The notes under the pieces are model-generated. The model saw only the letters and a list, made by a program, of their open reading frames with translations. It searched no databases and was not told where the DNA came from. The position numbers and the translations under genes were made by a program. Of a stretch of 64,000 nucleotides of DNA, positions 1,529 through 60,420 are shown one piece after another. Each line of letters opens with the position of its first letter. Position 1 is the first letter of the stretch. Source of the DNA: Coriobacteriales bacterium (GTDB lineage: Bacteria; Actinomycetota; Coriobacteriia; Coriobacteriales; UBA8131); assembly GCA_031282405.1 (NCBI GenBank), contig JAITDU010000033.1:5857-69856 (forward strand), given 5' to 3'.

Positions 1529-1539
1529 GGGGGGGGGGG
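1529..1539. repeat. G11 homopolymer (C11 on the coding strand) in the 57-nt spacer between the MORN gene stop and the ATG of the left-edge membrane protein
   Basis: Counted directly: g at 1529-1530 plus 1531-1539. It lies 23 nt upstream of the ATG at 1506. Confidence 0.9.
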
Positions 1540-44627: not shown

Positions 44628-47600
44628 TTAAAGCCCTCGGGCTTTTTTGCGCCGAATCGTAACTACCGCCACTGTTGCAGCTATGAGTCCTGCCGCGAGC
44701 AAAATGACAACGGCAATAAGCAGAGGATTTAAGGTGCCTACACCGTTTATATCCTCACTTGGTGCGCTCGTAGTCACCTCGGGCGTTGTTTGTGTAGCTT
44801 TGTCGACAGAAGCGACAGTTTCGATGGCACTTGCGTCCGTAGTACTGCTACCACCGGCGGCTGGGCCGGTGCCGTGCGGTCGATTAATCGTGAAAACGGC
44901 AGCGCCTTGGCCAACACTGTAGCCGTCATCAAAGTGTACGACTAGTTCATGAGTGTCATTACCCAAGGTATCTACAAACTCCGGCGTTAAAACAATGAGT
45001 GCGCTCCCTTTAGCGAGGGTGCCTGCGTCCTTATCTTGATAGACCATCTCACGTGGATTTGTACCGCTTAGAGCACTGAGGCTAAAGTCCTGACCATTGA
45101 GTTCCACACGAGAGATAGTAGTATATTCGCCTTTTACCCTTATCAAAACGCCTATACCAGTCGTGTATATGCCGCCTTCGGCAGAGTTTTCCTGCAGAGG
45201 GTGATCGGACACAAGTGCCAGCGTCGACGCATCGAGTTCAGCCAAAAGAGACTCGGCCACACCTTGCGAAAGAGGCGGAGCACCAAGGGCAAGTGCTTTT
45301 CTTGCCGCCTCAAAAGCTGCTTCAAAGCGAGATAAGGCCACAGCGTCGTAGTTTTCAGGCGCTATGTTCACGCGTTGTAAAACGGGCCGTTTGGAAGATA
45401 TATCGTTTTCAAGTTCTTCTGTGGCCTTTTCTGTAGCTGTCACAACAAACTTAACCAAAAGCGGAAGGGGCACATAGGCATTGTCATATGAGGCGTCTGG
45501 CGTAAATAAAGCGGGCGCATAAAATACCCCATCATCAAATACGCTCCATACCTTGCCTGTCTCATCGGTGCTTGTCTCATAATCCTGAGCACCGGGCACA
45601 ACATGAGCGGGGTCTACGCCTACTCCAAAGTCCCAATCAAGGTTTCCGTAAAGACTCATGCCGTCCAGATCCGTAACACCTTCAAACACATAGTTGTCTG
45701 GCCCCTGCAAAAGCGCATCGGGGTCTTTTGTTACAGCGTCGCCAAAGGCCAGAGTAGCTGTATGCAAAGGATAAGAGGTCACCGTTATCACTGCCGGGGT
45801 GATATCAATAGCAAGTTCTATCTCCAGGGGCACATAAAGGCCCGTAGGAGGCGAAACGCTAAAGTCTACAATGTACTCCGGATACGGCGTAAATACCGCT
45901 GTTGCAGTTTGAATACCCGTCTTTGAGGTAAGGATTTGGTCAGGGTCTTTCCACGACCAGGAGCCCTTATCAGTGATGTCAGTCGCAGAGCTTTTATCTG
46001 TCGGCTCGGCAATCACACAACCGTTGTCTAAAAACTCTACCTCAGACACCTCGCCGCCATAGACACCGGTGCTGAGCGAGGGTTTGGTGTCTACTTCTGT
46101 CTTAGGCGACCACACACTAAAGAATGCCGGGGTTATAAAGGTATCCACACGTTTATCGCCGGGGATAAACTGGGCGTTGCGTTGGTATACGCCCTCTGTT
46201 GCAAACGCTTCGTTGGGATCTTCGTCAGGTGCCCATAACCACACGCCTTCAAGCGCCTCAGGTGTATCTCCCAGCGTATAGACCACATCGCCGGTTATCT
46301 CAGAAGTGCTAAGAGTGTCTTGCCCCGGCGGGTTGGAGAATAGTGTTGAGCCTTGGGGGTATTCGGTGTACTCAACAGTGGTACCTGCCATCCTCGGCAG
46401 TGCCTTAAGCACCACTATTGCTGCGGTACCGCTGAGCGTGGTGTAGTTTTTGGCCACCGCATAATATGGGTTGGCGGGGTCATCCACCGGGGTGAACTCA
46501 ACCGTATATGAATAACTGAGAGCCAACTCTGCGTCTTCGTTGCCGGGAATAGTTTGGTTTACGTTCGCGTCCCATGCCAGCGTGCCGGCCGAGGTAATAT
46601 CTACACCGCCTGCGCCTAAGACCTGTGTACCACCGAGCAAAGATGCCTCTACATACTCGCCAAAGTGGATGGATGAGGCTTGAGGCGAGCCGGTAGCCCA
46701 CAGGGGAGTAGCCTTGGTCACAAGAGCGCTAACGTTGGTGGGAAAAGGCGTGTCGCTCAGTTTATAACAATTAGCCTTACCACCATTCAGTTTAATGCCA
46801 AAAAACTCTACCGGCTTGGGCTGGGCTGTGCCACTGGCATCTAACACCACATCAGGCCCGTCGGTAAACGATGCACTCGCGGCACTGATATCTACGCCCA
46901 CTGAATTTTTATCGCTCCACTCGGCGTCATCTTTTACTCCTACCACTTCAAAATGGCCGTTTAAGACTTTGTTGGTGCCCACAAGGGCCACATCCGCAGT
47001 AGCGTCATAGACGCGCGTATCGGGCAAAAGCTCATTGGGTATATAGGCAATGCTTACCGGCTTGGGCAAGATTACTACGTGCACCGATACCTCTGTAGCC
47101 GCGTTATAGTTTGCGTCGCCTGCTTTGGCGAGATAAATATTGACCTCTCCTGTTGTGATGGGCGAGAAGGTGCACGTCGCATTGCCTGCGCTGGTCTGTG
47201 CGCTCAAAACAGCGGTGTTGTAGGTCCATACATAATCACTCGTAGATTCTGCTTCACCAGAAGCGCTGAGGGCAAAGCTCGTACCATAGATAACATCAGG
47301 CAGGGTATCTCCGGTGTAATCAGTGCCGTTTAACGAGATATGCAGTGCGCTTTGTGCGGCTTTTGATACGGAATATGCTGGTAAGAGCGCGCCTTCATCA
47401 TCGAGGTAGTTACCGTCCCCTGAATAGACAGCGCTCAGGCTGTGTGGGCCCACGCTTAAAATGGAGGTTTTGAGAAGGGCCGTGCCGTTACTATCTACGT
47501 TGACGGGATCTCCTAATGAAGCCTCCCCGTCAAAGAACTCGACGGTGCCCTGGGGCACAGCTTTGCCAGCAACACCGGTAACCGTGGCCGTAAGCGTGAC

Positions 47601-50600
47601 CTCATCACCATAATCAGAGCCTGCTGGAGGCGCGGCGGTAAGTGCAAGCGTGCTTGTGGCCTTGTTTACGGTCAGGGCCAGAGCGGGGCTTTGCGGCGCG
47701 TCGTTGCCTGTTGTGCCAGCCGTATAGCTCACACCTTGGGGGTTTACGGTCATAGTGAGGATATAGGGTGTCTCGCTGGGAGTAAGACGCTCCAGGAATG
47801 CAGACGTGAGGGTAAGGGTGCCGGGGGTGCCGGGGGTGCCGGGGGTAGTGTTGTAGTCGGTGCCAAGCGCAAGCGTGTAGCTCGTGTCTATAGCACCCGA
47901 AGGGGCCGGCACGCAGACAAGTTGGGAGATGGTGTTCTGGTTATCTGTGTAGGCAACCGTAACCGCTGTGCCGCCAAAGCGTGTGTAGCCGGCGGTCGCA
48001 TCCAGTGAGCTGTCCGCGTAAAAAACGATACCCTCACTTGCAATGGCGTGTGCGTTTTCTACCGCATCACGCGCGCGTACATAGACGTAGTATTTGCCTG
48101 TGCTTGGCAGCGCGGCGTTTAGAGGAGAACCCTCAGTGATTGCAACCCAAGTCTGTGTGGTGTCTTCCAGGGCTGCGGCTTCGTCTGCAAACAACGGGCC
48201 TGTACCGGTATCGGTATAGATCAGATACTCAAGCCCGTTTGCACTAGCCAGGCCGCTGCCGTTGTCTGTGGCACGTATCGCAAGCGTGGGCGCTATGCCT
48301 TTGTAAAAGTGCGTGTAGCCTGAATCAGGACTGCTAAAGCTGTCGTAGCTGGTAGAACGAATGGTCAGCTCTAACTCAGGAGACGTGGTATCAAGCCCTA
48401 TGGTGGCCGTATGTTGTGCCTCGGTGTTGTTGTAGATATCCACCGACCAGTAGGTAATCGTATGCGAACCGTCCTGGCCGCTTAAGGCAAACGGGGCGCT
48501 GTAGGTCTGCTGCACACCACCGTCAAGTGTGTAGTAGGTCGTGGGAGAAGCACTACCGTCTGTGGCGTTTAGGGTTATGGTGCCGCTGGCATTGACCCAT
48601 CCGCCCGTGGGATCGATTGTTGTTACCGGAGCCGTGGATTCTACGTAGTGTGCCTGAATAGCAATCGGAGTATCTCCCGGTGTAGCAGGCATCGTGATAG
48701 TAGCCGGGCTGGTCGTGGCAATCGTACCTACATCTACGCCTGCAGTTTGTTCCCACGACCAGAATTTATAGCCTGAAGGTGCCGTAGCTGCGGTAAGAGT
48801 AACCGCGCGTGAAGCTTCATAGTAACCCACATTGGCAGTAGCGCCACTTCCGTTTATACCGTATTCTCCAAATGGCGTGGGTGCCTGAACATCTGGGGTC
48901 GTATCTGCACTCAACTCGACTTTATAGGTAGGAATAATGTCTGAGACACTAAAGGTACCTTGGGCCTCCGATAGATAAGGAGTGCCGCTTGGGTCATGTT
49001 CAAACACAACGGCTATGGTGTAGGTGCCATTTATCCGTGTCCAGTCCTCGTTGAGCACTACGATAAGTTGGTTTTTTAGCTCGGTAGGCGGCTCACCAGG
49101 AGGAGCATCGGTAAAATGAAATACCTGGTTTGCATCCCAGGTTGTGCTGTAGGCATCGGCATCAAGGACAAAAAACGTGCTCTCGCCGGGGCGCTTTATC
49201 CTGACCTCTTTGACTATTGCATCAGGTAACGTAGCGGGGTCATCTCCCATATCGACGCTGGTACGAAGCGAAAGCGCGGCGGCTTTGTACGCCTCACCTG
49301 AAATACCAGGCAGCGTCTGATAACCGTCTATGTCGGTGAGGTAGTTATAGCCTAAAGGACCTAAGAAGTATATGGCATCGGTGAAGGTTTCCTCGCTTTT
49401 TACTATAGTGCCGTCTACCTCGATTTTTTCAGGAGCAAAGTTGTCGATGGAAAGGAACACACCACCGTCAGGCTCCACAAAGTCCTCATCGAGTATAAAA
49501 AGTGCTCTCCAGGTAAGCGCGTACTTCTTTTTATCCGCGCCTTCTGAAGGATAGTAGTAAGCATCGGCATCTGCATAGGCCACCTGGATAATATCAAGGC
49601 CGTCTACAGGATCGCCGCTTGCATCTGTTATCTTTACAGGGCCGGGATAAGGGACGCCGCCGTCAGGCAGGTATTGAATACCGCTTTGCCACGCGCTGAG
49701 ATTATGAGGGTCTGTTAGAGAATCAGATGCAACAGCAGGTCCGGCTACTATGGCGTGGTAGTCCAGGCCATCCGCTACAGGCTCAGCCAACGTGAACTGG
49801 ATATAGCTGGTAGAGTAGCCATTTAGGATAGTAACGGCCTTGGCGCTTTCAATCTTTCTGGCTACCTCTACTTTTGGATAGGCATAGAGATTAGGGTCAT
49901 TACTCATCTGACTTAACTGGAACCAATAAATATCCTCTTTACCATTTTTGTCAGAGCGTATCTTTACCTGGGTCGTATCGTTTGTCTTAGCGCTCATATG
50001 CGGGGTTATGGCAAGCTCATAGACTTTGTAATCGTCATTTTCTGGGTCATTGATAAAGTCTGTAGAGCCAGGCGTTTTTTCTACAGCGCCATATAACACC
50101 ACCTCATCAAAGCGCAGGCCCGGGGCATCAAGTGTGCCCACAATGGGATATACAAAGGTCAAGGTCAGCCTGTCAGAAACACCGTCGCCATCGCTGTCTG
50201 ACAAAACTGCTCCTGCGGTATCTACCGGCTCTGCAAACGTGGCGTAAGGATGTACGGTAAAGCTGACGTCTTGGGTCTCGTCCGGAATACCATTGTCGTA
50301 GCTTATCTTCAGTTTTGCCGTATAGGTGCCCGGGTCAAGGCCAGAAGCAGGTTGGACCGTCCAAGAGGTCTGTGCCTCTGAGGGTGGGATCAACATAAAG
50401 TCATCTGTACTCATGTCCCACTCAACATCGCTTACTGTTCCACTTGCATCCGTGTTAACCACACGCGTCAAATCTGTGTCGCTTGACACATCATAGCCTT
50501 GCAACTTGTCATTGAAGATGACGCTTTCGTAGTTGTGGATGAAGAAGTCTGTAGGCACAGAGGTAAAGCGGCTGCCTTCTACCACTTTAACGCGAATCTG

Positions 50601-53600
50601 GTATGTGCCGGGCTCAAAGCTAAGAGACGTTTCTGAACTTGATACTGTCACATCAGCCCACGCGCCCCACACAAGCGGAGATATTGCGGTGGCCTTTCTG
50701 GATTCATAGGTGTATTCTGAATTGTAATTAGTAAGTGTCACCGTGCCGTCAGAGCTTTGAGCCGTAGGCTGCACTACGTTAAGGGTAGGCTGCACCGGAC
50801 GGACAGGCACGTTGAGTTCTTGGGGCAAAGAATCAATGTACTCATCGCCAGATGTAGCATGGCGCACTATGGATACCGTAGTACCATACCAATCTCCTGG
50901 GATTTGCCAGGTACCATCTGATGACGCAACTACCTTATCTCCTCCACTGAATGAGTAGGTCGCGCCTGGAGTAAGGCCCGTAATGTAGCGTGTTACGTAG
51001 TTTATCTGTGCGCTTGGCGTCTCATAGCGCACGGTCTTATAAAATGTAACCGGCAGGCTTGTGGAGTCAGAAGCTATCTTATAGGAGTGCGTTATATCCA
51101 CGTTTTCCCGGTAGGTCCAGTTTTGCAAAGTGAGGTTAAGAGTAGCGCCGTTTGCTACAGTGCCGTCCAGCGTAACGTGTATCAGCCACTGGGTATTGTC
51201 GGTACCAGCGACAGGGGTACTGGAAGATCTGATATCAACGCCATCTGGCAAGACAAAAGACGTAAGAGCTTTTGAAAACGCCAGTACGGGGGCAGAGAAA
51301 GTAACCAGTATGTCTGTGGTTATAGCCGTGCCGCTTGCGCCGCCTTGCTGAAGTGCAGTTGCGCTTACGGTTATGGGTGTCATGGCAGGTTTGGCCTCAT
51401 AGGCAGCGGCGTTTTTGGCCTCGTCTATAACCACGACGTTAAACCAGTAGTGTTTATCGGGCACAAGGGCGGAGTTGTCTGTGCCCGTACCTGTATCTAT
51501 CCCACCTGCGCCTACCGTAAAGGTAAACGTGCCCTCAACAGCATCAGTGCCCGCACGTATACCTACCAGCGTGCCGTGCTCTTCGCAGTCCTCGGGCGTT
51601 ATCATGTCGTCGGTGCCTATCTGGTGGGCATAGACCTTATAGATAAGGTCGTCAGCGTCGGTGAAGTTATCTTCAGCTGCTTGCCAGGTAAGCGTGACGG
51701 TGGTGTCGGTGATGGTCTCTGGAGCTATGGTAATAGCACCATCCGCTCCCGGGTCGGGTGGCGTGGTCTCTTGCTTTACGGTGAGGGTAAAGGACACGGA
51801 GGCCTCGCTGTAGTTGGTGCTTTCGGGCTTGGTGAGGGTGATGGTTGTGGTACCGGGGGCAACAAAGGTGATGGAGGCAAGAGCGGGGTCGGCATCAGGG
51901 GCGATGGTAGCCACGTCGGGCACAGAGCTTTGCCATGAGTAGCCCTCTGGGCTCTGGCCGCCTGTGGCGCTTACGTCAAGGCTGCGCACCTCGCGGGCAA
52001 GCTCAAGAGTTGTGCCCGTAATGTCTGCATCGCTCTCATCAGCGTTAAGGATTGAAAGGCCGGTCTGGGTAGCTTTGTTTACCGTATAGCTGTCCAGTAT
52101 GCCTGAGCCGGCGTTGTAGTTTTCATCGGCACCTGCCGGTGTGTACGCAGCATAGATATAAGGGAAGTAGCCCGACTGTCCGGGATTATCAGGATCATCC
52201 ACAAAGCTGTACTCAGCAGCATCCAACACGACATCTACACTGGCCACGCCATCGGAAAGCTGTTGAGGTGTTCCGAGCGCCACCGCTGTGCTCGCATCTG
52301 TTTGCTTGTAGAAGGTGACCGTGCCTGTAGGATGTGCGGCATCTTGGGCCACCTCTTCTCCGGCAACCGTAGCGGTAAGCGTGGTGGTCGCGCCATAGGT
52401 TATAGGCGAGGCGGGAGTCGCTACAAGGCTTACGGTTACGTCTGATTTTACAACATGCAAAGTAACCGTCGTCGTAGACGGAGCGGCGTTAAGGTTTGCG
52501 TCCTGCACACCACGATCATCATCTACATAGGTCTTGCCACGTGGATCGTACGAAAAGGTCAGCGTGTAGTCGTCGGCCTCCAGGGTGTCCAGATAGGTAG
52601 CCAAAAACGTAACCGTAGCGCCACTTTCATCAAGCGTGTACTCATAGCCTTTGGTAAGCTCTGTGTTGTCGATTTTAATGGTGCTGATGCCGTTGCCGTT
52701 AAGTTTTACGGTAGCCGTAACATCTTCGCCGGAGGCCTTTGCAAAGGTGATCTCTGCGGTGTCTTGTTCAGAGTTCGTATAGATAACAATGCCGTCTTCG
52801 TAGTACGTAGCGTTACCGGCCTTATCGGTCACTTTGGTATAGAGGAAAAACGTATCGTTTTCAGCCTGTTCAAACGTGGTGCCTTCTGTCCAGGAAGCAC
52901 CAGGCAAATCGTCCGGACTGATGACCTCTGCGGATTTCAAATAGTAGGTCTTGTCCACACCATCACCACCGGTGTCATAAGGCGTGATGGTAGCTTTAAC
53001 GGTTTCGGTAAAAAACAGCCCAAAGGTAAGGTCGTTTAAGAAGTCCAGCAAGGGCCGTGAATTATACTTCACCTGGGCAGTAGGCGGTGTTTTATCTTGA
53101 TAGACCGTTATCACACGTGATATTTCTGGCTCACCGGGCATGGGCGTTGTGGTGTTTTCTACCACATAGCCCGCCCAGGCAGGAATGATAACGCGCACCT
53201 GACCAGAAAGCACGTCGCTTACTTCCAAAGAGTACGTGGAATTAGAGACATGGGTAAGAGCTCCTTTGGTGGCATGGCCGGTGGCATCTGCGCTTATGAG
53301 CGTGATGTTCTCTGCGGTAAGACAGCTTACGTCAGCGTCGCCGCCAGACCCATCGCCAAAAACAATTTTGATGCCGGTTGTGGTCTTGAGGTCGGTCGTA
53401 TCCGAGCCGGGGCCTGCACCGCCTTCTTGAGTCGCTTCAAACGACACCACACGCGTGGCGTAGACATCAAGGGCGTAATAGACCTCCGTGCTTGCATCAT
53501 CTGCTGAGGTAGTACGCAGATAAAGCCTTGTGGGCGCAGCTCCCCAAGCGATGGTGGCACTCCCGACAATCTCGGAGGTAAAGTCGGCATCAGAAAACAG

Positions 53601-56600
53601 CTTGGCTTCTTTGCCCGCCGTACCGCTTTGTCCCTCAAGCGTGATGTTGTTAAGCGCCAGTACAGCCCCGCTATCACTGGCAGAGGCTTCAGTAGCCAGA
53701 CGCACACCTAACACCACAGGGTCTGAGGGCAAAAGCCCCTTGGTAGCCGAGGTGGCGTCGGGCACCAAGGTGGCTTGTTTTCCTGCAGTCGTAACAGAGG
53801 CAACCGTAGGCCGAACCGCCCATTTGGCAAAGTATTCTTCAGGAAGTGCGGGAGGATTGTTCACCTCATCTGTTTGAGTAACGGGCCCTTCTTCAAAGTC
53901 AATATCTTTGTACCAACCTAAAAACACATGACTGGTGGAGGTAACCACAGAGGGAAGTGTGAGCGGGCTTGAGGTATAGGAGTGGTTAAACTCGCCGGGC
54001 TCGGCTAGATCGGTAGAGCGTATCCAGCCTGAGGGCAAACTGACAAAGGTGGGCTCAATGCGCGCTTCTGCATCACCTGTACCTGCCGTTTTTGTCTGAA
54101 CAGTAACTTGAGGGGTGGCCGAGGCTACCGTAACAGGGCTTATCTGAGAGCCAAAGGTAGCATCTGTCGGTGACAGTCTTACCTCATATCTACCGGCGGT
54201 GACAGAGGCGACATCTGTCGCTTGCTCCCAATCTTGGGTAATATCAGCTCCGTTTTTGCTGGCGCGGTACTGGAAGATGCCGCTATAGAGAATCTGTCCG
54301 TCGGTGGAGGTATCACTTGAGGCGCGTTGGGTGCTTACCCCTGTTGGAGCATCTGGTCTTTGGGGCAACACAAGCGGCGTACTCGGATCAGAGGCCGGAT
54401 GTGTGCCGTCTGTTTTGTGTTGCAACACTACGGCGACACTGCCCGCCGTTACGGCACCGGAGAGCGAATAGGGCAAACTCGCCAGTGTGCCTCCCACGCG
54501 TACCTCATAGGCTGAAGGTGTCACACCGGGAGCAAACGAGAGGGTCTCGGTGGTGTAGTTTATGCTCAGTATCTGTGCGGTATCGGGTTGTCCAAAGGCC
54601 GTAGATACCGTAGCTACAAGCTTTGCAGGCGACTGGTTGTGATTGTTATCAAGTGCAGCCCGTACATAGACCGGATAGGTGCTTTCAGGCTCAAGGCCAC
54701 TCAGTACCAAAGAAGATGTGCCTGGAGTCCATGCACCCGAGTTGCTCAGGCGATAGAGCAGACTTGAGCCGACAGGCATACCGGACACGTTTACGCTAAA
54801 GCCTGTTGCGCTTATGCTTTCAGGAGGAACTACGGCGCTTACCGCCTCGATATCCCAGGTGGCTTTATCTACCACGAGATAGACATTGGCATAGGTGTCG
54901 TATCCTTTTTCAACATCATCGGTCGTTATCGTGTAGTAAAGGTGCAGGCGTACCTGATAAGAGCCGGCGTTAATAGGAGATGTTGGCGTTATCGTCCAGG
55001 CAGTGTCTGAGCTATTGCCCGGTACTGTCTTTGAACCGGGAGTATTGAGCGTAAAGTAATTCACGTCGCTTTCGTGGCCAGAAGCAGTGGAAGCTTCAAT
55101 TGTTAGGGCATTTGCGCCGATTTCGATATCGTCGCTCATGATATTGTTGATGGAGATAGGATGTGCCGGTACTGTCTGGCCATAGGTGTAGGTGCCAAAG
55201 TTTACGGCAGAGACATTTAGGGGAGATGACACAGTGGCAAACAGTGAGGCGGGTTTTGCGTCCGGGCCCGTTGTGACAGCTGCAAAGCGGATATCGTAGT
55301 CGGGAGAAGCGGCGGTAAAGGAAAGCGTAATGGCGCCGTCTTCGTCAGGGTGTTCTGAGTCTATCTCAGCGGTAAAGGTCATCCACGTAGCTCCCTCACC
55401 CGCGCGGTATTGATAGACGGTGCCCACGTCAAGATTATAAAGGGTAATGTGCTGTGGGCTTGTGGGGTCATCCAGCCTGGCTTTTATCCCTATGGGGGCA
55501 TCGGTGCGAGCGGGCAGCACAAGCTTGGTAAGCGCAGAGGCAAAGGATGTGTTTTCCACATAACAGTAGCGTACATCGGTGGTAAGGGCAGAGGCTCCTG
55601 TCCAGCCCAGCGAGGCAAAGCTTAACGCAGTGCCACCGGCAGGTGTCCACGTATCTTGTCCAATGTAGGACCACTCCAGCGCACGCGCAGCACTGAAAGT
55701 TACCGTCTCTGCAACGTAGTCAAACGTCCAGCTTTCCGAGGTGGGAGCAGACGGGCGGGCGTCGATGGAAAGCGCAGAAGCGGGGCGCACGGCAGGACCT
55801 GAATAGTTCGCGTCCTGGCCGATGCGATAAAGAAGCGAGGCTGCTGTAGGGCCGGTTACCTGTAGAGTATCCAAGGCAGCAAAGATGCTCATAGCGGGGC
55901 TTTCCGGCGCGAGCTTGCCTGCGGCCACCACACTTGCATCGCTAAGATCCAGGCGCTCGGTACCTAAAAACTGTGCCCAATCTGTGGAATCGCCCGTGTC
56001 TGAGCCTACCAACCAGGTGTTATTGTTATCGGCAGCGCGCACGCGGTATTGAATACCTGCCGGTATCACCTGAGCGCCATCGCTACCGGCACCGATCTCT
56101 GAGGTGGCGTAGTCGCGCCCTAAGACGGTTTGCGGATACGGATAGACGCGCACACCATACATCCAACTTTTACCGGCGGGACGACAGACTACCTGGTAGG
56201 TCGCACTTGAGACAAGGTTGCTCAAAGTAAGGGTATTGCCCGTATAAGCAGAACTTGCTTCTATGGCACCGGTGGAGACATTAACGGCTGCATAGGTATA
56301 GCCATCCCGTGTGCCATCACCGGCAATCGTGATGGCAGTGCCGTTTGACTCACGGGTTAGATAGGCGGCATCTACGTCTACGTCATCTTGCGAAGGGGTG
56401 TGTATGGTAAGCGCGCTGAGAGTACCGGCGGCATCATAGGCAGCACTTGCGTAATCTACCTCCGTCCAGCCTGAGGGCCTGGCTACAAGATAGTAGGTGG
56501 TATTCAGCAAAAGCCCCTCAAAGACAAGACGCGTGCCACTGCCGGTGCCTGTTGTCCAGTCGGTAGCAGGCAAGGCCGGCGCTGTCGTATCAGGCTTGCC

Positions 56601-58808
56601 GGTGCCATCGTCTGCCAGCAAAGCGTATTCTACGCCGGTATTGGTGTTGAGAAGGGACAGGCGCACGTGCTTGTTTACGCCTTGGCCATAGACTTCCATC
56701 TCATAAGCAGGTACAGAGGCCTCGCCACTGCCGCCTTCGCTTCCTCCTGAGGCAGGAAGTAACTTGATATCTGCGTAGAAGCTATTATCCAGTACCGCGC
56801 CGGGGCTTTCGTTGGTGTGCAGGCCTGAGTTTATGGCAAGCAAGGGAATACCGATAACCCGATAGGTCTTGCCCGGCGTGAGGTTATGAAAGGTCAGTTC
56901 GCCGCCGGTTGCAAAGCCCGTGCCATTTGCATCTTTGGTATACCAGTAGCTGCCACTCCCCAGGTTAGGGGTAGGACTTATGGGAGATGCGGTGCCACCG
57001 GATGAAGGAGCAGGGTTATAGGTGGCAGAAGGACTGGTAAGATCGGTGACCGACGAGCCGCGCACCTCGGCTAAGGCGTAGGCGTAGCCTGCCTTGGTTT
57101 GTGCAGACAGCGAGCTTTCGCCTGAGTAGCTGGCTTCTTGTTCCGGTGCGATGCCGGTGCCGGGGGCAAAGACGATGTTGTCGACGATATTGCCGTCATG
57201 TTGAGAGATATCAAGCCACCCATAAACCGTTGTGCCCTGGCCGGCTGGGACGGTGTAGGCACCGGATTTGGTTTTCCATGCTTCGCTGAAGATTGTTGAT
57301 GCAATATATACATAATAGTTTTTGCCATAATAGGTTGTGGCGAATCCCTCGCTGTTATTTGCAACTGAAGGCAGTTGAGACGTCTTCAGACCATAGTCTT
57401 TCATCATCTGGTTGAGGATGGCCAGAAAATACGTGTCGTTGTTGCTATTGATTCCCGCTGCATTGCTATGATTATTTATTCCATAAGGGTAGTCGCCGTC
57501 TGCCGGGTACGGGGGAGTAAACTGCGTCGGAGTAGTAGACGCTTTAAGTGTGTTCCAGTAGTCCGGCTCATTACTGACGTATTTGCCGTATTCGTTTTTA
57601 TCGTTGACCGCCGGTCCGATGATCAATGCCATAACGTCGGGGCTTTTTGCACTGTAACGACATGCGTGGTCGAAGCTCCATTCATAGATCTTGCCGGGAA
57701 CAGTCGCAATCTCCTGATAGGCCGAGGCGGCGTAAAACGGGGCGATTTCGATGCTGTAAGTTCCATGTTTGCCATCTTCCAGCCCAGTTCTCCAGGTACC
57801 GTGAGGGTTAATGTCAAATACTTTTCCGATACCATTGTTGTTTGAGCGATTACCCCCGTGATTTTCATTAACCGTAGAATTCCAAGCAAAAGGATAGGTG
57901 CTAGAAGGCCAATAGTCAACAATTGGCCTTACGCCTACGCCAATGTTAGCAAAACTCTCAAAGTCCCCCAGAACCAAGGAAGGGGAAAGGGTCTTATTCA
58001 CCACCTTAACCTCAGCAATACCACTGTCCAGATAGTTCGTCTCGCCGGGGTCGGTAGTTGTGTCATTGCCGTTTGAGTCCACATGGTTGGTAACGGTAGT
58101 CCAGTAATAGTAGTAGGTCGTGGCCTCTACCGTAGGAGTGGTAAAGTCCAGTGTGGATTTTGTACCGTCAGCTTTAAGGATCGGATCTGGATTGTCGGCC
58201 GTAAAAGCAGTACCCGTCGCCTTGATAGCATCGGCGTTTTGTGTCTTGTTTTGAGGGGCATCGTAGGCTTGGCTTCGATACCACTGATAGCTAAGATATC
58301 CCCCGTCAATAGAAGAGGCCCGTACATAAAAGCGTCCCGAGGCAGCCTCAGAATAGACCGAGTCGGCAGGATTGTGAGTAAACTGGGGTGCGGCAGCAGG
58401 CTGGCCTGTCGCCAGCGTCCCTATCCCTGCCGCCAATGCCTGAAGTGCCGCCAGGGGCATAAGCGTAAAGGCTAACAGAAAGGCCAGTACAAAAGAGAGT
58501 ACCCTGCGTCCCCTTTTCGCACGCTGTATTCGACTCCCGTCACTCAAAACCCGTGACAAAGAGATGCATGATCGCTCACGCTTCTTGTCACTTTGAGTCT
58601 TTGTGTAGTTTTGCTTAGAGGTTTTACTTAGGAAAGAAGAGCTAAGTGAGGCCCCCCCCCCTGGGCCTATATCGGTAGTGTTGCCCATGTGTGCATCCCT
58701 TCCCCGGAGTGTTCCTACCCTATCTTTTAGTTGTGTGTGTGCATACTGAACAGATGGCGTGTTAGGCCTTTTAGTGTGATTCGATTTCATCGAAGTACAC
58801 CCCCGCAT
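44628..58808 (-). CDS. Giant (up to 4726 aa) surface protein: signal peptide, lectin/jelly-roll-like N-terminal domain, long arrays of Ig/FN3-like domains, C-terminal TM tail anchor
   Basis: Single uninterrupted ORF. The signal-like segment RRVLSFVLAFLLAFTLMPLAALQALAAG begins near residue 92 of the longest ORF. Better-supported starts are the ATG at 58790 (preceded by GGGGGTG) or the ATG at 58688 (preceded by GGGGAAGGGA). Bacterial Ig-like group-3-type units are present (TLTATVTGVAGKAVPQGTVEFFDGEASLGDPVNVDSNGTA...). There are repeated L-x-P-x-T-Y-x-V motifs and FLGWYKD-type repeats. The C-terminus is LLIAVVILLAAGLIAATVAVVTIRRKKARGL. Confidence 0.85.
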   Translation of the reverse strand: MRGCTSMKSNHTKRPNTPSVQYAHTQLKDRVGTLRGRDAHMGNTTDIGPGGGASLSSSFLSKTSKQNYTKTQSDKKRERSCISLSRVLSDGSRIQRAKRGRRVLSFVLAFLLAFTLMPLAALQALAAGIGTLATGQPAAAPQFTHNPADSVYSEAASGRFYVRASSIDGGYLSYQWYRSQAYDAPQNKTQNADAIKATGTAFTADNPDPILKADGTKSTLDFTTPTVEATTYYYYWTTVTNHVDSNGNDTTTDPGETNYLDSGIAEVKVVNKTLSPSLVLGDFESFANIGVGVRPIVDYWPSSTYPFAWNSTVNENHGGNRSNNNGIGKVFDINPHGTWRTGLEDGKHGTYSIEIAPFYAASAYQEIATVPGKIYEWSFDHACRYSAKSPDVMALIIGPAVNDKNEYGKYVSNEPDYWNTLKASTTPTQFTPPYPADGDYPYGINNHSNAAGINSNNDTYFLAILNQMMKDYGLKTSQLPSVANNSEGFATTYYGKNYYVYIASTIFSEAWKTKSGAYTVPAGQGTTVYGWLDISQHDGNIVDNIVFAPGTGIAPEQEASYSGESSLSAQTKAGYAYALAEVRGSSVTDLTSPSATYNPAPSSGGTASPISPTPNLGSGSYWYTKDANGTGFATGGELTFHNLTPGKTYRVIGIPLLAINSGLHTNESPGAVLDNSFYADIKLLPASGGSEGGSGEASVPAYEMEVYGQGVNKHVRLSLLNTNTGVEYALLADDGTGKPDTTAPALPATDWTTGTGSGTRLVFEGLLLNTTYYLVARPSGWTEVDYASAAYDAAGTLSALTIHTPSQDDVDVDAAYLTRESNGTAITIAGDGTRDGYTYAAVNVSTGAIEASSAYTGNTLTLSNLVSSATYQVVCRPAGKSWMYGVRVYPYPQTVLGRDYATSEIGAGSDGAQVIPAGIQYRVRAADNNNTWLVGSDTGDSTDWAQFLGTERLDLSDASVVAAGKLAPESPAMSIFAALDTLQVTGPTAASLLYRIGQDANYSGPAVRPASALSIDARPSAPTSESWTFDYVAETVTFSAARALEWSYIGQDTWTPAGGTALSFASLGWTGASALTTDVRYCYVENTSFASALTKLVLPARTDAPIGIKARLDDPTSPQHITLYNLDVGTVYQYRAGEGATWMTFTAEIDSEHPDEDGAITLSFTAASPDYDIRFAAVTTGPDAKPASLFATVSSPLNVSAVNFGTYTYGQTVPAHPISINNIMSDDIEIGANALTIEASTASGHESDVNYFTLNTPGSKTVPGNSSDTAWTITPTSPINAGSYQVRLHLYYTITTDDVEKGYDTYANVYLVVDKATWDIEAVSAVVPPESISATGFSVNVSGMPVGSSLLYRLSNSGAWTPGTSSLVLSGLEPESTYPVYVRAALDNNHNQSPAKLVATVSTAFGQPDTAQILSINYTTETLSFAPGVTPSAYEVRVGGTLASLPYSLSGAVTAGSVAVVLQHKTDGTHPASDPSTPLVLPQRPDAPTGVSTQRASSDTSTDGQILYSGIFQYRASKNGADITQDWEQATDVASVTAGRYEVRLSPTDATFGSQISPVTVASATPQVTVQTKTAGTGDAEARIEPTFVSLPSGWIRSTDLAEPGEFNHSYTSSPLTLPSVVTSTSHVFLGWYKDIDFEEGPVTQTDEVNNPPALPEEYFAKWAVRPTVASVTTAGKQATLVPDATSATKGLLPSDPVVLGVRLATEASASDSGAVLALNNITLEGQSGTAGKEAKLFSDADFTSEIVGSATIAWGAAPTRLYLRTTSADDASTEVYYALDVYATRVVSFEATQEGGAGPGSDTTDLKTTTGIKIVFGDGSGGDADVSCLTAENITLISADATGHATKGALTHVSNSTYSLEVSDVLSGQVRVIIPAWAGYVVENTTTPMPGEPEISRVITVYQDKTPPTAQVKYNSRPLLDFLNDLTFGLFFTETVKATITPYDTGGDGVDKTYYLKSAEVISPDDLPGASWTEGTTFEQAENDTFFLYTKVTDKAGNATYYEDGIVIYTNSEQDTAEITFAKASGEDVTATVKLNGNGISTIKIDNTELTKGYEYTLDESGATVTFLATYLDTLEADDYTLTFSYDPRGKTYVDDDRGVQDANLNAAPSTTTVTLHVVKSDVTVSLVATPASPITYGATTTLTATVAGEEVAQDAAHPTGTVTFYKQTDASTAVALGTPQQLSDGVASVDVVLDAAEYSFVDDPDNPGQSGYFPYIYAAYTPAGADENYNAGSGILDSYTVNKATQTGLSILNADESDADITGTTLELAREVRSLDVSATGGQSPEGYSWQSSVPDVATIAPDADPALASITFVAPGTTTITLTKPESTNYSEASVSFTLTVKQETTPPDPGADGAITIAPETITDTTVTLTWQAAEDNFTDADDLIYKVYAHQIGTDDMITPEDCEEHGTLVGIRAGTDAVEGTFTFTVGAGGIDTGTGTDNSALVPDKHYWFNVVVIDEAKNAAAYEAKPAMTPITVSATALQQGGASGTAITTDILVTFSAPVLAFSKALTSFVLPDGVDIRSSSTPVAGTDNTQWLIHVTLDGTVANGATLNLTLQNWTYRENVDITHSYKIASDSTSLPVTFYKTVRYETPSAQINYVTRYITGLTPGATYSFSGGDKVVASSDGTWQIPGDWYGTTVSIVRHATSGDEYIDSLPQELNVPVRPVQPTLNVVQPTAQSSDGTVTLTNYNSEYTYESRKATAISPLVWGAWADVTVSSSETSLSFEPGTYQIRVKVVEGSRFTSVPTDFFIHNYESVIFNDKLQGYDVSSDTDLTRVVNTDASGTVSDVEWDMSTDDFMLIPPSEAQTSWTVQPASGLDPGTYTAKLKISYDNGIPDETQDVSFTVHPYATFAEPVDTAGAVLSDSDGDGVSDRLTLTFVYPIVGTLDAPGLRFDEVVLYGAVEKTPGSTDFINDPENDDYKVYELAITPHMSAKTNDTTQVKIRSDKNGKEDIYWFQLSQMSNDPNLYAYPKVEVARKIESAKAVTILNGYSTSYIQFTLAEPVADGLDYHAIVAGPAVASDSLTDPHNLSAWQSGIQYLPDGGVPYPGPVKITDASGDPVDGLDIIQVAYADADAYYYPSEGADKKKYALTWRALFILDEDFVEPDGGVFLSIDNFAPEKIEVDGTIVKSEETFTDAIYFLGPLGYNYLTDIDGYQTLPGISGEAYKAAALSLRTSVDMGDDPATLPDAIVKEVRIKRPGESTFFVLDADAYSTTWDANQVFHFTDAPPGEPPTELKNQLIVVLNEDWTRINGTYTIAVVFEHDPSGTPYLSEAQGTFSVSDIIPTYKVELSADTTPDVQAPTPFGEYGINGSGATANVGYYEASRAVTLTAATAPSGYKFWSWEQTAGVDVGTIATTSPATITMPATPGDTPIAIQAHYVESTAPVTTIDPTGGWVNASGTITLNATDGSASPTTYYTLDGGVQQTYSAPFALSGQDGSHTITYWSVDIYNNTEAQHTATIGLDTTSPELELTIRSTSYDSFSSPDSGYTHFYKGIAPTLAIRATDNGSGLASANGLEYLIYTDTGTGPLFADEAAALEDTTQTWVAITEGSPLNAALPSTGKYYVYVRARDAVENAHAIASEGIVFYADSSLDATAGYTRFGGTAVTVAYTDNQNTISQLVCVPAPSGAIDTSYTLALGTDYNTTPGTPGTPGTLTLTSAFLERLTPSETPYILTMTVNPQGVSYTAGTTGNDAPQSPALALTVNKATSTLALTAAPPAGSDYGDEVTLTATVTGVAGKAVPQGTVEFFDGEASLGDPVNVDSNGTALLKTSILSVGPHSLSAVYSGDGNYLDDEGALLPAYSVSKAAQSALHISLNGTDYTGDTLPDVIYGTSFALSASGEAESTSDYVWTYNTAVLSAQTSAGNATCTFSPITTGEVNIYLAKAGDANYNAATEVSVHVVILPKPVSIAYIPNELLPDTRVYDATADVALVGTNKVLNGHFEVVGVKDDAEWSDKNSVGVDISAASASFTDGPDVVLDASGTAQPKPVEFFGIKLNGGKANCYKLSDTPFPTNVSALVTKATPLWATGSPQASSIHFGEYVEASLLGGTQVLGAGGVDITSAGTLAWDANVNQTIPGNEDAELALSYSYTVEFTPVDDPANPYYAVAKNYTTLSGTAAIVVLKALPRMAGTTVEYTEYPQGSTLFSNPPGQDTLSTSEITGDVVYTLGDTPEALEGVWLWAPDEDPNEAFATEGVYQRNAQFIPGDKRVDTFITPAFFSVWSPKTEVDTKPSLSTGVYGGEVSEVEFLDNGCVIAEPTDKSSATDITDKGSWSWKDPDQILTSKTGIQTATAVFTPYPEYIVDFSVSPPTGLYVPLEIELAIDITPAVITVTSYPLHTATLAFGDAVTKDPDALLQGPDNYVFEGVTDLDGMSLYGNLDWDFGVGVDPAHVVPGAQDYETSTDETGKVWSVFDDGVFYAPALFTPDASYDNAYVPLPLLVKFVVTATEKATEELENDISSKRPVLQRVNIAPENYDAVALSRFEAAFEAARKALALGAPPLSQGVAESLLAELDASTLALVSDHPLQENSAEGGIYTTGIGVLIRVKGEYTTISRVELNGQDFSLSALSGTNPREMVYQDKDAGTLAKGSALIVLTPEFVDTLGNDTHELVVHFDDGYSVGQGAAVFTINRPHGTGPAAGGSSTTDASAIETVASVDKATQTTPEVTTSAPSEDINGVGTLNPLLIAVVILLAAGLIAATVAVVTIRRKKARGL
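58652..58661 (-). repeat. G10 homopolymer on the coding strand inside the 5' end of the 4726-aa gene (encodes GPGGGA)
   Basis: Counted directly as c at 58652-58661 on the plus strand. It lies 27 nt after the ATG at 58688 and upstream of the signal peptide. Confidence 0.95.
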
Positions 58809-58860
58809 CTCTTTTGCTTAGTTACTAACCTTTAGTCTTGTATTGCCCTTACAAATTACC

Positions 58861-58878
58861 TGTGTTATGTATAACACA
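58861..58878. promoter_or_regulatory. 18-bp palindrome TGTGTTAT-GT-ATAACACA upstream of the 4726-aa gene (candidate operator); half-site repeated at 58900-58907
   Basis: Read directly; the 8-bp arms are perfect. It lies 53-70 nt upstream of the longest-ORF ATG. taacacaa recurs about 30 nt further upstream. Confidence 0.45.
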
Positions 58879-59246
58879 AAAAGGATACTACCACTTTTGA
58901 TAACACAATGCAAAGTCACACAGATATATTGCACCCAATTGTAACCAAAATCACACAAAATCTTCACAAATAGGGCACGAATTGTGCCTAAGTAGGCTCA
59001 TTTTATGCTACACTACCCCTTAAGAAGTGCAGGGCCCTTTTGTCGGGGCGACGCTTCTAGGTTATTTCGAAGAGGGCTATCGCTTTTGCGATGGCCTTTT
59101 CGTTTTACTGGACTTTCGGCTTGGCTTTGACTTTCGTCTTAGCTTTAATAAAGCCTCTCGTCGCTGCTTTCGCAACGAAGCAACTCTGATTGCTGTTTCA
59201 ATTATTGAGACAACAATACGGACTATGGTAAGACCACATCAAAACT

Positions 59247-59255
59247 GGGGGGGGG
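59247..59255. repeat. G9 homopolymer in the ddl / giant-gene intergenic region
   Basis: Counted directly as g at 59247-59255. Confidence 0.9.
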
Positions 59256-59367
59256 CAATGACGGGATGCGATTGCCTACTCTGGCCGACGTAAGTCAGAC
59301 AGGTACGGACGCAAGTCAGTTAGGTACGGACGTGAGGCAGTTGGGGTGTATCAGAAGAGGGAGACAC

Positions 59368-60420
59368 TTACGCCTGGTATCTCGCGTGGGAGTCCATGGC
59401 ATCGCGAAGCAATTGTTCTATGAACACTCCAAAGGGAGTGTGAGCGGTTGCGCAGGCCATCGGAATAAGAGAATGTTCTGTCATACCGGGCGAGACGCTG
59501 ACGTCCAGTATCTGGGGCTTTGTGCCGTCCCATATCAAATCGACGCGGCTGATGTCGCGGCAATCCAAAGCCCTGTGTACTTCAAGCGCCGCCTGCTCGA
59601 TGAGTTCGCGCGCCTGGGCAGCCTTGGCCGGGTCTGCGTTAAGCGACGCGGGTCGCACCGGACAATAGTAATCGACCAGATCGGTGTCCTGGCGGGCCTC
59701 AATGTCAAAGAACCCCTGTTTGGGCACTATCTCTACAGGTGGCAGTACCCGAGCACCTGGGCCGGTGCCGACGACTCCCACGGCCAGTTCCACCCCTTTT
59801 ATCCACTGCTCGATGATGACAGCGGTGTCATAAGACAGGGCATCAATGATAGCCGGGCCCAGGTCGTCGAACTTTTCGACTTTGGTTACGCCCATGGCCG
59901 AGCCGCCCCGAGCCGGCTTGACAGCCAGGGGATAACCATCGGGCAGGCGCTGTGCCACCAGATCGAGGGCGGTCGCAGCACCCATATCCTTGAAGGAAAT
60001 TGATGCCAGCGAGATGGCCTTGGGCCAGGAGGCCGGACCGTCGGGCGCGTTGGTGTTGACGTCAGCCCTTGCATCGAGCAGGCGACGATAGGTGCTCAGC
60101 GCATGTGGTAGGCTGGACTTGTTCCAGGCAATACGGCAGACAGCCGATGTGGACCCCACATAGGGGATATCCAGATACTCCAAGAGCGCTTGGATCGTGC
60201 CGTCCTCGCCGCCTTTGCCGTGCAGGGCAATGTAGACCGCATCGATGTTTTGTGTCCGCAGCGTCTCTACCAGGCTGGATTCAGTGTCCAGATGCAGGAC
60301 TTCGTGCCCTCTTTCCTTGAGTGCATTCGTAATGTTCTGACCGCTTTCCAAGGAGAACTCCCGCTCATGCGAGCTGCCGCCCATCAAAACTGCTATTTTA
60401 TATGACACTTTTTTGCTCAT
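59368..60420 (-). CDS. ddl: D-alanine--D-alanine ligase
   Basis: 350 aa. KIAVLMGGSSHEREFSLESGQNI...ALHGKGGEDGTIQALLEYLDIPYVGS... is a typical Ddl ATP-grasp protein. Confidence 0.9.
   Translation of the reverse strand: MSKKVSYKIAVLMGGSSHEREFSLESGQNITNALKERGHEVLHLDTESSLVETLRTQNIDAVYIALHGKGGEDGTIQALLEYLDIPYVGSTSAVCRIAWNKSSLPHALSTYRRLLDARADVNTNAPDGPASWPKAISLASISFKDMGAATALDLVAQRLPDGYPLAVKPARGGSAMGVTKVEKFDDLGPAIIDALSYDTAVIIEQWIKGVELAVGVVGTGPGARVLPPVEIVPKQGFFDIEARQDTDLVDYYCPVRPASLNADPAKAAQARELIEQAALEVHRALDCRDISRVDLIWDGTKPQILDVSVSPGMTEHSLIPMACATAHTPFGVFIEQLLRDAMDSHARYQA

Follow-up and report, generated by a model that had tools for sequence, protein, structure and literature searches.

Slippage-driven variation of surface-protein genes is in itself a well-known mechanism in bacteria. 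In promoter-spacer homopolymers, such as the C-tract of Bordetella fim and those of Neisseria opc/porA, the -35/-10 spacing is altered and graded transcription results, while the opa genes of Neisseria carry CTCTT repeats in the region coding for the leader peptide. The known system closest to the tract described here belongs to the same phylum, in which pilus genes of Bifidobacterium breve were found to be switched by replication slippage in a G-tract (Penno et al. 2022, PMC9187656). In the sortase-dependent pilus loci of B. breve UCC2003 (bbr_0113, bbr_1889) the first gene carries the tract, of G11-G12, in its 5' part; the phase of the reference genome is OFF, and related species have G-tracts at the corresponding position (PMC9187656). 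Similarly, poly-G/C contingency loci of Campylobacter jejuni and Helicobacter consist of runs of about 8-13 nt in surface-related coding sequences, with multiple such loci per genome and both ON and OFF states among the sequenced genomes (see PMC8437040, PMC2823697).

Here we describe a G10 tract in a 64-kb window, the whole stretch of DNA analysed, which probably represents a slippage-driven translational phase-variation (contingency) switch of a giant surface-protein gene from an uncultured member of the Coriobacteriales living in the termite gut. As in B. breve UCC2003, the tract belongs to a surface-structure locus of a gut member of the Actinomycetota, and its length determines whether the N-terminal ORF and the rest of the protein are joined. 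However, the B. breve tract is located between the Sec signal and the LPXTG part of a pilin, whereas the window tract lies within a long N-terminal leader ahead of the signal-peptide core, and the 4.7-kaa product combines Ig-like and carbohydrate-binding (CBM) domains with a membrane anchor at its C-terminus. Moreover, slippage was measured in B. breve, while it is predicted for the window tract. Promoter-spacer homopolymers likewise make the expression of surface proteins dependent on homopolymer length, but the window tract lies downstream of a Shine-Dalgarno (SD)-backed ATG and alters the reading frame. The opa repeats resemble it in their position in the signal/leader-peptide part of a surface adhesin gene (see also PMC5320596), where a frame change eliminates the protein entirely with a minimum of wasted translation; in contrast to the window homopolymer, they are pentanucleotide repeats in genes for small outer-membrane proteins of a Gram-negative pathogen. 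Finally, the C. jejuni and Helicobacter loci share all the traits given above with the system described here, but their genomes are AT-rich and devoid of mismatch repair, whereas the Coriobacteriales genome of the window has a GC content of about 52%.

Results

The preliminary description of this DNA had placed a G10 run near the 5' end of the gene and had claimed that the 14-kb frame is open with G10 and terminated early with G11 or G9. Our analysis reproduced the run on the minus strand, and simulation of different tract lengths matched the claimed outcomes exactly. The coding (minus) strand reads ATG GGC AAC ACT ACC GAT ATA GGC CCA GGG GGG GGG GCC TCA CTT AGC, and the run lies inside an ORF of 4726 aa (44628..58808, minus strand; Table 1). 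With simulated lengths of G10 or G13 the product from ATG 58688 comprises 4686/4687 aa, while the peptides end in ...GGGGLT or ...GGGLT with G11 or G8 and in ...PHLALLS with G9 or G12.

Table 1. Positions of the G-tract and associated features in the window
Feature	Position	Strand	Remark
Two more in-frame ATGs upstream of the tract	58808-58806, 58790-58788	-	
Shine-Dalgarno-like GGGGAAGGGA, 7 nt before ATG 58688	58696..58705	-	Duplex dG -7.7 kcal/mol
ATG start, 27 nt 5' of the tract	58686..58688	-	Mature-protein frame (ON phase with G10)
G10 homopolymer, proposed slippage site	58652..58661	-	Reads GGG GGG GGG G.. (Gly-Gly-Gly)
TAG, terminator for G11 or G8, 7 nt past the tract	58642..58644	-	Simulated lengths, frame scan
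TAA, terminator for G9 or G12, 21 nt past the tract	58628..58630	-	Simulated lengths, frame scan
Polar, basic leader, tract to signal-peptide core	58503..58651	-	ASLSSSFLSKTSKQ...RIQRAKRGRR
Signal-peptide hydrophobic core, then AGIG	58431..58502	-	VLSFVLAFLLAFTLMPLAALQALA; hydropathy scan
Giant surface protein CDS	44628..58688	-	4686 aa from ATG 58688
C-terminal membrane anchor and basic tail	44631..44735	-	LNPLLIAVVILLAAGLIAATVAVVTI; tail RRKKARGL

The location of the tract after an SD-supported ATG and before a signal peptide was also found as previously claimed, the SD being confirmed as GGGGAAGGGA, for which the duplex dG was computed against the anti-SD ACCUCCUUA. GGGGAAG-like motifs are also present 5' of the leader ATGs of two homologs (L011 and L015). 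Of the further in-frame ATGs, that at 58790 is accompanied by the SD-like GCGGGGGTG (dG -9.9), and since all three candidate ATGs are upstream of the tract, the tract falls within the coding sequence whichever of them is used. About 48 codons separate G10 from the signal-peptide core, and the scan of this leader for in-frame starts revealed no ATG and no GTG, only two TTGs without SD. The giant protein contains a conserved N-terminal module (PQFTHNPADS..YYYYW..NGDF..ATVPGKIYEWS..) as well as Big_3_5, CBM_X2 and OmpL47-type barrel domains, and this secreted, membrane-anchored surface protein is most likely an adhesin or a glycan binder. Approximately 64 residues precede the hydrophobic core, an unusually long leader for a Sec signal peptide, and this counts against the switch reading.

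Three outliers aside, the longest G/C homopolymers of the window measure 6-7 nt, the outliers being G11 at 1529-1539, G10 at 58652-58661 and G9 at 59247-59255. G8 words occur nine times, compared to 2.2 +/- 1.8 expected from 100 dinucleotide shuffles, none of which (0/100) reached nine. The locus was found in a single public run, a termite gut metagenome with a depth of about 11.6, and in the independent Logan assembly of this run a unitig spanning 58300-58940 carries G10 with zero differences; Logan contigs are, however, assembled sequences from which minor variants have been dropped.

Comparison of the tract length in related genomes, which had been proposed as a check, demonstrated runs of G9-G13 at the equivalent site in eleven homologous genes, with all three phases represented. 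The homologs belong to MAGs of termite-gut Coriobacteriales and 'Family XIII', to a contig of a JGI metagenome and to one isolate, Gordonibacter sp. Marseille-P2775, and their tracts measure G9 (L009, L010, L083 and L011, which equals L001), G10 (L007, L015, L026 and L064), G11 (L029, the Gordonibacter isolate) or G13 (L006 and L008). The run always consists of G on the coding strand and is always situated between the leader ATG and the signal peptide, although identity in the adjacent domain among tract-bearing homologs is only 31-64%. Across 30 homolog loci (150.9 kb), 13 G/C runs measure at least 9 nt, and 11 of these fall within the leader windows, the 300 nt that precede the conserved N-terminal domain and account for 6% of the sequence (binomial P = 2.4e-12). 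Each of the 12 loci, the window included, possesses an SD-backed ATG (dG -5.7 or better) from which an ORF extends up to the tract, an arrangement that arose in about 21% of shuffles per locus (product of the fractions, 4e-9). Between tract and hydrophobic core, no in-frame ATG, GTG or TTG was found in L009, L010, L011, L029 and L064, and only TTG or GTG without SD in the window, L006, L008 and L026. In L015, in turn, the tract is followed by a good SD-ATG (MKKRALSYF, dG -9.9), so that expression of this gene does not necessarily depend on the tract.

The leader ORF shares the frame of the mature protein in three of the 12 loci (the window, L008 and L010) and out of frame in the other nine, six of which need one additional G and three one G less. 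Such mixed phases are expected for a free-running switch and not for a fixed recoding signal. An OFF share of 9/12 corresponds to the random expectation and would equally result if a tract without function drifted neutrally. In eight of the nine OFF genes the frame stays open over all available sequence (263-1440 codons). The SD, the ATG (MIF..), G13 and the peptide GGGGL(T/A)A(S/F)L after the tract are common to L006 and L008, but a 1-nt difference beside the tract places only one of them in frame. Likewise, L064 and L083 agree in their leader peptide, MK(E/Q)F..DA(L/R)RV, in the ATG frame. The OFF state of L011 (G9) was seen again in an independent assembly (depth 35). The annotated starts of the OFF genes P0002, P0003 and P0004 are truncated and lie inside the signal peptide, and the L083 leader ORF (41 aa) constitutes a separate gene in the JGI annotation. 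In addition to its OFF phase, L083 contains an in-frame TGA within a conserved motif, indicating that some OFF copies may simply be decaying.

Discussion

From the anatomy of the tract and the comparison with its homologs we infer a switch in which an SD-backed ATG 5' of the tract, at 58688 or alternatively at 58790/58808, would serve as the translation start, and the tract would be translated as Gly-Gly-Gly, followed by a polar leader of roughly 48 residues and the signal peptide. Slipped-strand mispairing during replication would add or remove one G, so that G10, likewise G7 or G13, would leave the 14-kb frame open (ON), while G9 or G11 would cause termination 15-19 codons past the ATG. Because this stop precedes the signal peptide, the protein would not be made (OFF). 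We further infer that tract length may fluctuate within a lineage and that flips would be reversible and subject to selection.

It is rather unlikely that the tract instead belongs to a 5' untranslated region or promoter-proximal leader, with the giant protein starting downstream, e.g. at a TTG in ..RV-L-SDGS.., and that its length only tunes transcription, mRNA structure or upstream-ORF coupling. The downstream TTG start, already named as a fallback in the preliminary description, proved weak: the two in-frame post-tract TTGs of the window, which precede the hydrophobic core by 14 and 18 codons, lack an SD (dG -2.2 and -1.1). The strong ATG downstream of the L015 tract is consistent with such an arrangement, as are a G7 run in L013 that itself occupies the expected SD site, the GGGGGTGGGGG immediately before an internal ATG in L012, and the leader ORF and G11 that precede the real start by about 400 nt in L022 and L084. 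However, five homologs are without a canonical in-frame start from tract to core, each locus possesses an SD-backed ATG whose ORF enters the tract, and the post-tract peptide of L006 and L008 is conserved in the mature frame. Alternatively, the tracts might be mutational hotspots without adaptive role, the out-of-frame homologs being decaying pseudogenes and the window gene one not yet hit. The out-of-frame share, which equals a random two-thirds, and the additional TGA in L083 fit this explanation, but long G runs that are not maintained decay fast by point mutation, whereas G9-G13 persists across homologs with 31-64% identity. The long open frames of eight of nine OFF genes, and the restriction of G to the coding strand at a start-to-signal-peptide site that is the cheapest place for a frameshift, also argue against it and make it unlikely.

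A further explanation for the many homologs that are out of frame in the DNA is slippage of RNA polymerase or frameshifting of the ribosome at the G run. Full-length protein would then be produced whatever the length of the template, and the DNA phase would matter little. Transcriptional slippage in bacteria is possible at homopolymers of at least 9 nt, which counts in favor of this explanation, and has been demonstrated mainly for A/T runs. However, programmed recoding implies one fixed phase, while six loci require +1, three require -1 and three require no correction, and the effect of the Bifidobacterium G-tract was traced to DNA replication slippage (PMC9187656), so that recoding at the RNA or ribosome level appears very unlikely. 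An artefact of assembly or sequencing in a G-rich stretch is hardly credible as the source of the tract length, even though G tracts are a known difficulty for Illumina sequencing (PMC9187656), homopolymer length in Illumina-based MAGs may be off by one base, and the G13 tracts of L006 and L008 are the exact break points of Logan unitigs. Two assemblies agree on each of the window G10 and the L011 G9, and a long run at the same position appears in thirteen or more independent assemblies, including one isolate chromosome; an error of one base would change the phase call, while the tract itself would still exist.

In summary, the tract is, unlike the C. jejuni and Helicobacter loci, linked to a single protein family in several phyla, with runs at the same site in about a dozen other gut bacteria, mostly in the "off" frame. 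If the window G10 indeed acts as a switch, cells that display a very large surface structure would coexist reversibly in the population with cells that lack it.

The G10 tract and the start of the giant gene

Changing the tract length in silico reproduced the arithmetic of the preliminary description, according to which G10 leaves the frame open and both G11 and G9 lead to a stop: G10 (as well as G7 and G13) gave a 4686-aa product from the ATG at 58688, G11 and G8 terminated at a TAG (58644-58642) 7 nt past the tract, and G9 and G12 at a TAA (58630-58628) 21 nt past it. The Shine-Dalgarno (SD) sequence ascribed earlier to this ATG, which lies 27 nt upstream of the tract, was recovered as well, and so was the position of the tract before the signal peptide (Table of features). 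The ATGs at 58688 and 58790 are both located 5' of the tract and in the frame of the mature protein. Between the tract and the hydrophobic core of the signal peptide no in-frame ATG or GTG was present, the two TTGs in this interval are without an SD (dG -2.2 and -1.1), and no SD-backed start was found downstream of the tract in the window. Since SD-backed ATGs in the mature frame lie upstream and only SD-less TTGs downstream, the G10 tract is most probably translated.

Across the 64-kb window G/C runs do not exceed 6-7 nt, apart from three outliers of 9, 10 and 11 nt, and the count of G8 words was higher than in all of 100 dinucleotide shuffles. The G10 run is a feature other than chance. When G/C runs of about 8 nt or more that are exceptional for their genome are taken as hypermutable repeats, the G10 run is one of them, and with the start codon proposed here it would lie inside the coding sequence, where gain or loss of one unit leads to early stops. 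No Rfam family or tRNA was found in the window, including 58400-59450, and 58300-59500 held no match to a sigma-70-like promoter. A GGCCC/GGGCC hairpin around the tract was considered as a general feature and rejected because the flanks differ in the homologs.

Coordinates and sequences of the features (window positions; the last two rows are homologous loci)
Feature	Position	Strand	Details
ORF of giant gene	44628..58808	minus	4726 aa; in-frame ATGs 58808, 58790, 58688
G10 homopolymer	58661..58652	minus	reads ATG GGC AAC ACT ACC GAT ATA GGC CCA G10 CC TCA CTT AGC
SD before ATG 58688	58705-58696	minus	GGGGAAGGGA, duplex dG -7.7
SD before ATG 58790		minus	GCGGGGGTG, dG -9.9
Signal-peptide core	58502-58431	minus	VLSFVLAFLLAFTLMPLAALQALA; classical hydrophobic, polar leader before it
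Second outlier homopolymer	1529-1539		G11 on plus, C11 on minus
Interrupted runs, L012			GGAGGAGGA and GGGGGTGGGGG
Interrupted run, L084			CACCCCCGCCACCACCCC

The second outlier homopolymer sits between a MORN-repeat gene (1564-2931, minus) and the gene of a large membrane or surface protein (ATG 1506, minus), which extends beyond the left end of the window. A short leader ORF from ATG 1558 (MSAFYNTPPPSQ, then a stop) would be fused in frame to the ATG-1506 protein at C10 or C13, and the tract may be a second switch that is currently out of frame; a search for homologs of the gene behind it found essentially none. A G9 run (59247-59255, plus) is located in the intergenic region between ddl and the giant gene. 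Within this region, 59003-59260 reached a depth of 70-310x in run X1, compared to 11.6x on either side, and variant joints were seen at 59060>59123 and 59252>59294, which points to a sequence common to more abundant community members or to a multi-copy element; this segment has no second copy in the window and no Rfam match. Tandem repeats at 59287-59342 (21-nt unit GACGTAAGTCAGTTAGGTACG, 2.7 copies) and 59111-59146 (18-nt unit, two copies) were also observed, and one metagenome variant skips 41 nt at the former array.

Source organism and predicted product

The locus was found in a single public run, the termite-gut metagenome SRR14710905, whose independent Logan assembly contains a unitig with G10 at a depth of ~11.6. 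The window encodes an anaerobic ribonucleotide reductase that shares 84-86% identity with proteins from Coriobacteriales metagenome-assembled genomes (MAGs) and ~70% with those of Eggerthellaceae, which identifies the host as an uncultured member of the Coriobacteriales, with a GC content of ~52%.

The predicted product is a giant cell-surface protein: its surface exposure is indicated by the signal peptide, Big_3_5 and CBM_X2 domains, an OmpL47-type barrel domain and a C-terminal membrane anchor, which is followed by a basic tail. The protein is plausibly an adhesin or glycan binder. Its conserved N-terminal module had no matches in relaxed Pfam and PDB sequence searches, and the AlphaFold model of the module (pLDDT 40.6) was too poor for use. 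Two more giant surface-protein genes lie on the same strand (18461-28774, 3437 aa, GLUG motif; 37189-43356, 2055 aa, fn3), both with ordinary short N-terminal signal or anchor sequences and no homopolymer tract. Genes for very large surface proteins thus form an island in this region.

The tract in homologous loci

With the conserved N-terminal domain and subsequently the ATVPGKIYEW motif as queries, a scan limited to one genome per species yielded ~50 distinct homologous loci, nearly all of them from termite-gut MAGs, and two further loci were obtained via homologous proteins. The preliminary description had proposed a comparison of the tract in related genomes, and 11 homologs indeed carry a G9-G13 run on the coding strand at the same spot, directly 5' of the signal peptide, in all three phases (Table of homologs). 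In the Gordonibacter isolate (LT827128) the G11 of L029, an OFF length, is located at about 473,348-473,358. In most tract-bearing loci it is the sole long G/C run within 4-6 kb. Among 30 loci (150.9 kb), 11 of 13 G/C runs of at least 9 nt fell inside the 300 nt preceding the conserved domain, stretches that make up 6% of this sequence (binomial P = 2.4e-12). Moreover, an ATG with an SD of dG -5.7 or better and an ORF reaching the tract was present in all 12 loci including the window. Per locus, ~21% of shuffled upstream sequences contained such an ATG-ORF; multiplied together, the fractions give 4e-9, a figure that is somewhat generous because the threshold was set at the weakest value observed.

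Length and phase of the leader tract in the window and its homologs
Locus	Tract	Mature frame relative to leader ATG
Window	G10	in frame
L006	G13	needs +1 G
L007	G10	needs -1 G
L008	G13	in frame
L009	G9	needs +1 G
L010	G9	in frame
L011 (= L001)	G9	needs +1 G
L015	G10	needs +1 G
L026	G10	needs +1 G
L029 (Gordonibacter sp. Marseille-P2775, isolate chromosome)	G11	needs +1 G
L064	G10	needs -1 G
L083	G9	needs -1 G

The upstream region of the window had no nucleotide similarity to the homologous loci or to the rest of the window. A metagenome scan added one distant, uninformative locus (L005), and a Gordonibacter-specific genome scan recovered the gene itself only. By record titles (L006-L082) the family is nearly confined to termite-gut MAGs labelled as many phyla, including Coriobacteriales, Family XIII, Oscillospiraceae, Prevotellaceae, Tannerella, Bifidobacteriaceae, Treponema and others. 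So many labels within one habitat suggest horizontal spread there, or binning errors; likewise, the Coriobacteriales and Family XIII labels of genes that are 50-64% identical may reflect either.

Tract phases and their interpretation

Relative to the mature protein, the leader ORF was in frame (ON) in three of the 12 loci and out of frame (OFF) in the others, six of which would require an additional G and three the loss of one. From the sequences compared, this spread of phases fits a free-running +/-1 switch and is unlike a fixed-phase recoding site; programmed recoding by transcriptional slippage or ribosomal frameshifting, for which one fixed phase is expected, was rejected on these counts. 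The lengths of G9-G13 and the 3:9 division were seen in a comparison between 12 homologous genes, and neutral drift would likewise give such a ratio of in-frame to out-of-frame genes. Several observations bear on whether the OFF genes are reversibly silent. Eight of the nine are open to the end of the available sequence (263-1440 codons), the OFF length of L011 was reproduced in an independent assembly (depth 35), a canonical in-frame start between tract and core is absent in five loci, with only SD-less candidates in four more, and the annotated N-termini of OFF genes (P0002-P0004) are truncated inside the signal peptide; for L083, the 41-aa leader ORF was called by JGI as a separate gene. 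The absent starts, open OFF genes, reproduced length and truncated annotations fit reversible OFF states. In L015, however, a good start is available downstream of the tract. Some OFF copies may be decaying, since L083, the closest homolog (JGI metagenome 3300042612), has an extra in-frame TGA in the conserved GNxLDNxxF motif (L083:2960-2965), beside its out-of-frame G9; the same frame continues beyond it, and the TGA could represent a pseudogene, a sequencing error or read-through.

Comparisons of pairs of loci point the same way as the spread of phases. L006 and L008 have in common the SD, the ATG (MIF..), the G13 tract and the post-tract peptide GGGGL(T/A)A(S/F)L, and one base beside the tract places L006 out of frame and L008 in frame, the other indels being 9 and 21 nt long. 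The leader peptide MK(E/Q)F..DA(L/R)RV is common to L064 and L083 in the ATG frame, with the mature protein in another frame, and L011 and L015 have the same start (MSR..) and are identical over the 16 nt preceding the tract. Among tract-less homologs, L014, L016, L018, L019, L025, L027 and L067/L069 possess a conventional ATG or TTG located 5-25 residues upstream of the hydrophobic core. In others (L012, L084) the leader is long and in frame, and at the position corresponding to the tract it contains a G- or C-rich run with interruptions, which looks like a locked version of the tract.

Termite runs were read as assembled contigs, which drop minor variants, and these contained no length variant at the window locus (one run, ~12x) or at L011 (35x). 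Unitigs end at both G13 tracts (L006 and L008), as either heterogeneity or sequencing error would cause. The gene of the window is represented by one sample only, and the runs holding parts of the Gordonibacter locus are shallow and barely cover it.

Discussion

The anatomy of the locus and the related genomes support a translational contingency switch as the best reading of the G10 tract, with switching itself inferred from these two sources. Replication slippage at the G run would switch the reading frame back and forth in the stretch from the initiation codon to the signal peptide, and OFF cells would make only a 15-19-residue peptide and be spared the expense of an exported protein of 4.7 kaa. 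In pathogens, slippage at homopolymers is a textbook route to phase variation. In general terms, the placement of the repeat in the leader-peptide region resembles Neisseria opa, and the use of G runs resembles the contingency genes of Campylobacter and Helicobacter. Closer in kind is the G-tract of Bifidobacterium pili, in which slippage during replication has been measured and the reference genome carries the OFF phase (PMC9187656). However, the gene family here is a different one, the tract precedes the signal peptide rather than following it, and the sortase and LPXTG motif of the pilus switch are not involved. A Bifidobacterium-type switch in the first gene of a sortase-dependent pilus cluster was thus rejected: the C-terminus of the giant protein has no LPXTG motif, and neither the giant gene nor its neighbours have pilin or sortase Pfam matches. 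No report of such switches in Coriobacteriia or termite-gut symbionts was found in the literature searched, which does not prove their absence.

Members of the family are present in Coriobacteriales, 'Family XIII' Clostridia and Gordonibacter. It is conceivable, if on balance doubtful, that a leader-peptide homopolymer cassette (SD-ATG, short variable leader, G9-G13, polar linker, signal peptide) travels with giant surface proteins across gut-symbiont phyla. Leader runs of C15/C10 were also observed in paralogs of Tannerella (Bacteroidota) MAGs (L033:2803-2817, L034:2717-2731, L073:1607-1616), with a conserved leader peptide MRV(G/E)LLN(C/S)YS and post-tract peptide KWLNN(S/R)WL; of the three, L034 alone is in frame, the other two being out of frame. 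At L022:469-479 (MMVANRPKGDWKKVVTGGGG..) and L084:2360-2370 (MSRGTMGAEARTATQKLASSNIAGGG..), a leader ORF with G11 lies ~400 nt upstream of the gene's own SD-ATG, and the spacer contains a long near-perfect inverted repeat (arms ~30-34 nt). An insertion may have uncoupled the switch, or the repeat may be an invertible element or form an attenuator hairpin; the arrangement could either add a second layer of regulation or free the gene from the switch. In a Dysgonomonadaceae locus (L030:3468-3476), an in-frame G9 is located in the gene body (..EVGQGGGAAGY..), outside the leader.

The family-wide, cross-taxon recurrence and the cultured carrier make the finding more notable, and the textbook mechanism makes it less so. 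For MAG annotation it means that nine of the 12 genes are now read as truncated or split, and the isolate that carries L029 offers a tractable test case. If the cassette reading is true, a whole guild of termite-gut and other gut bacteria would keep most copies of its largest surface proteins silent, with stochastic ON expression. If the switch is real, uncultured symbionts and the cultured human-gut Gordonibacter would gamble on expressing adhesin-like proteins of 1,000-4,700 residues, with a bearing on how they attach to host, protists or fibre and how they escape phage or immunity.
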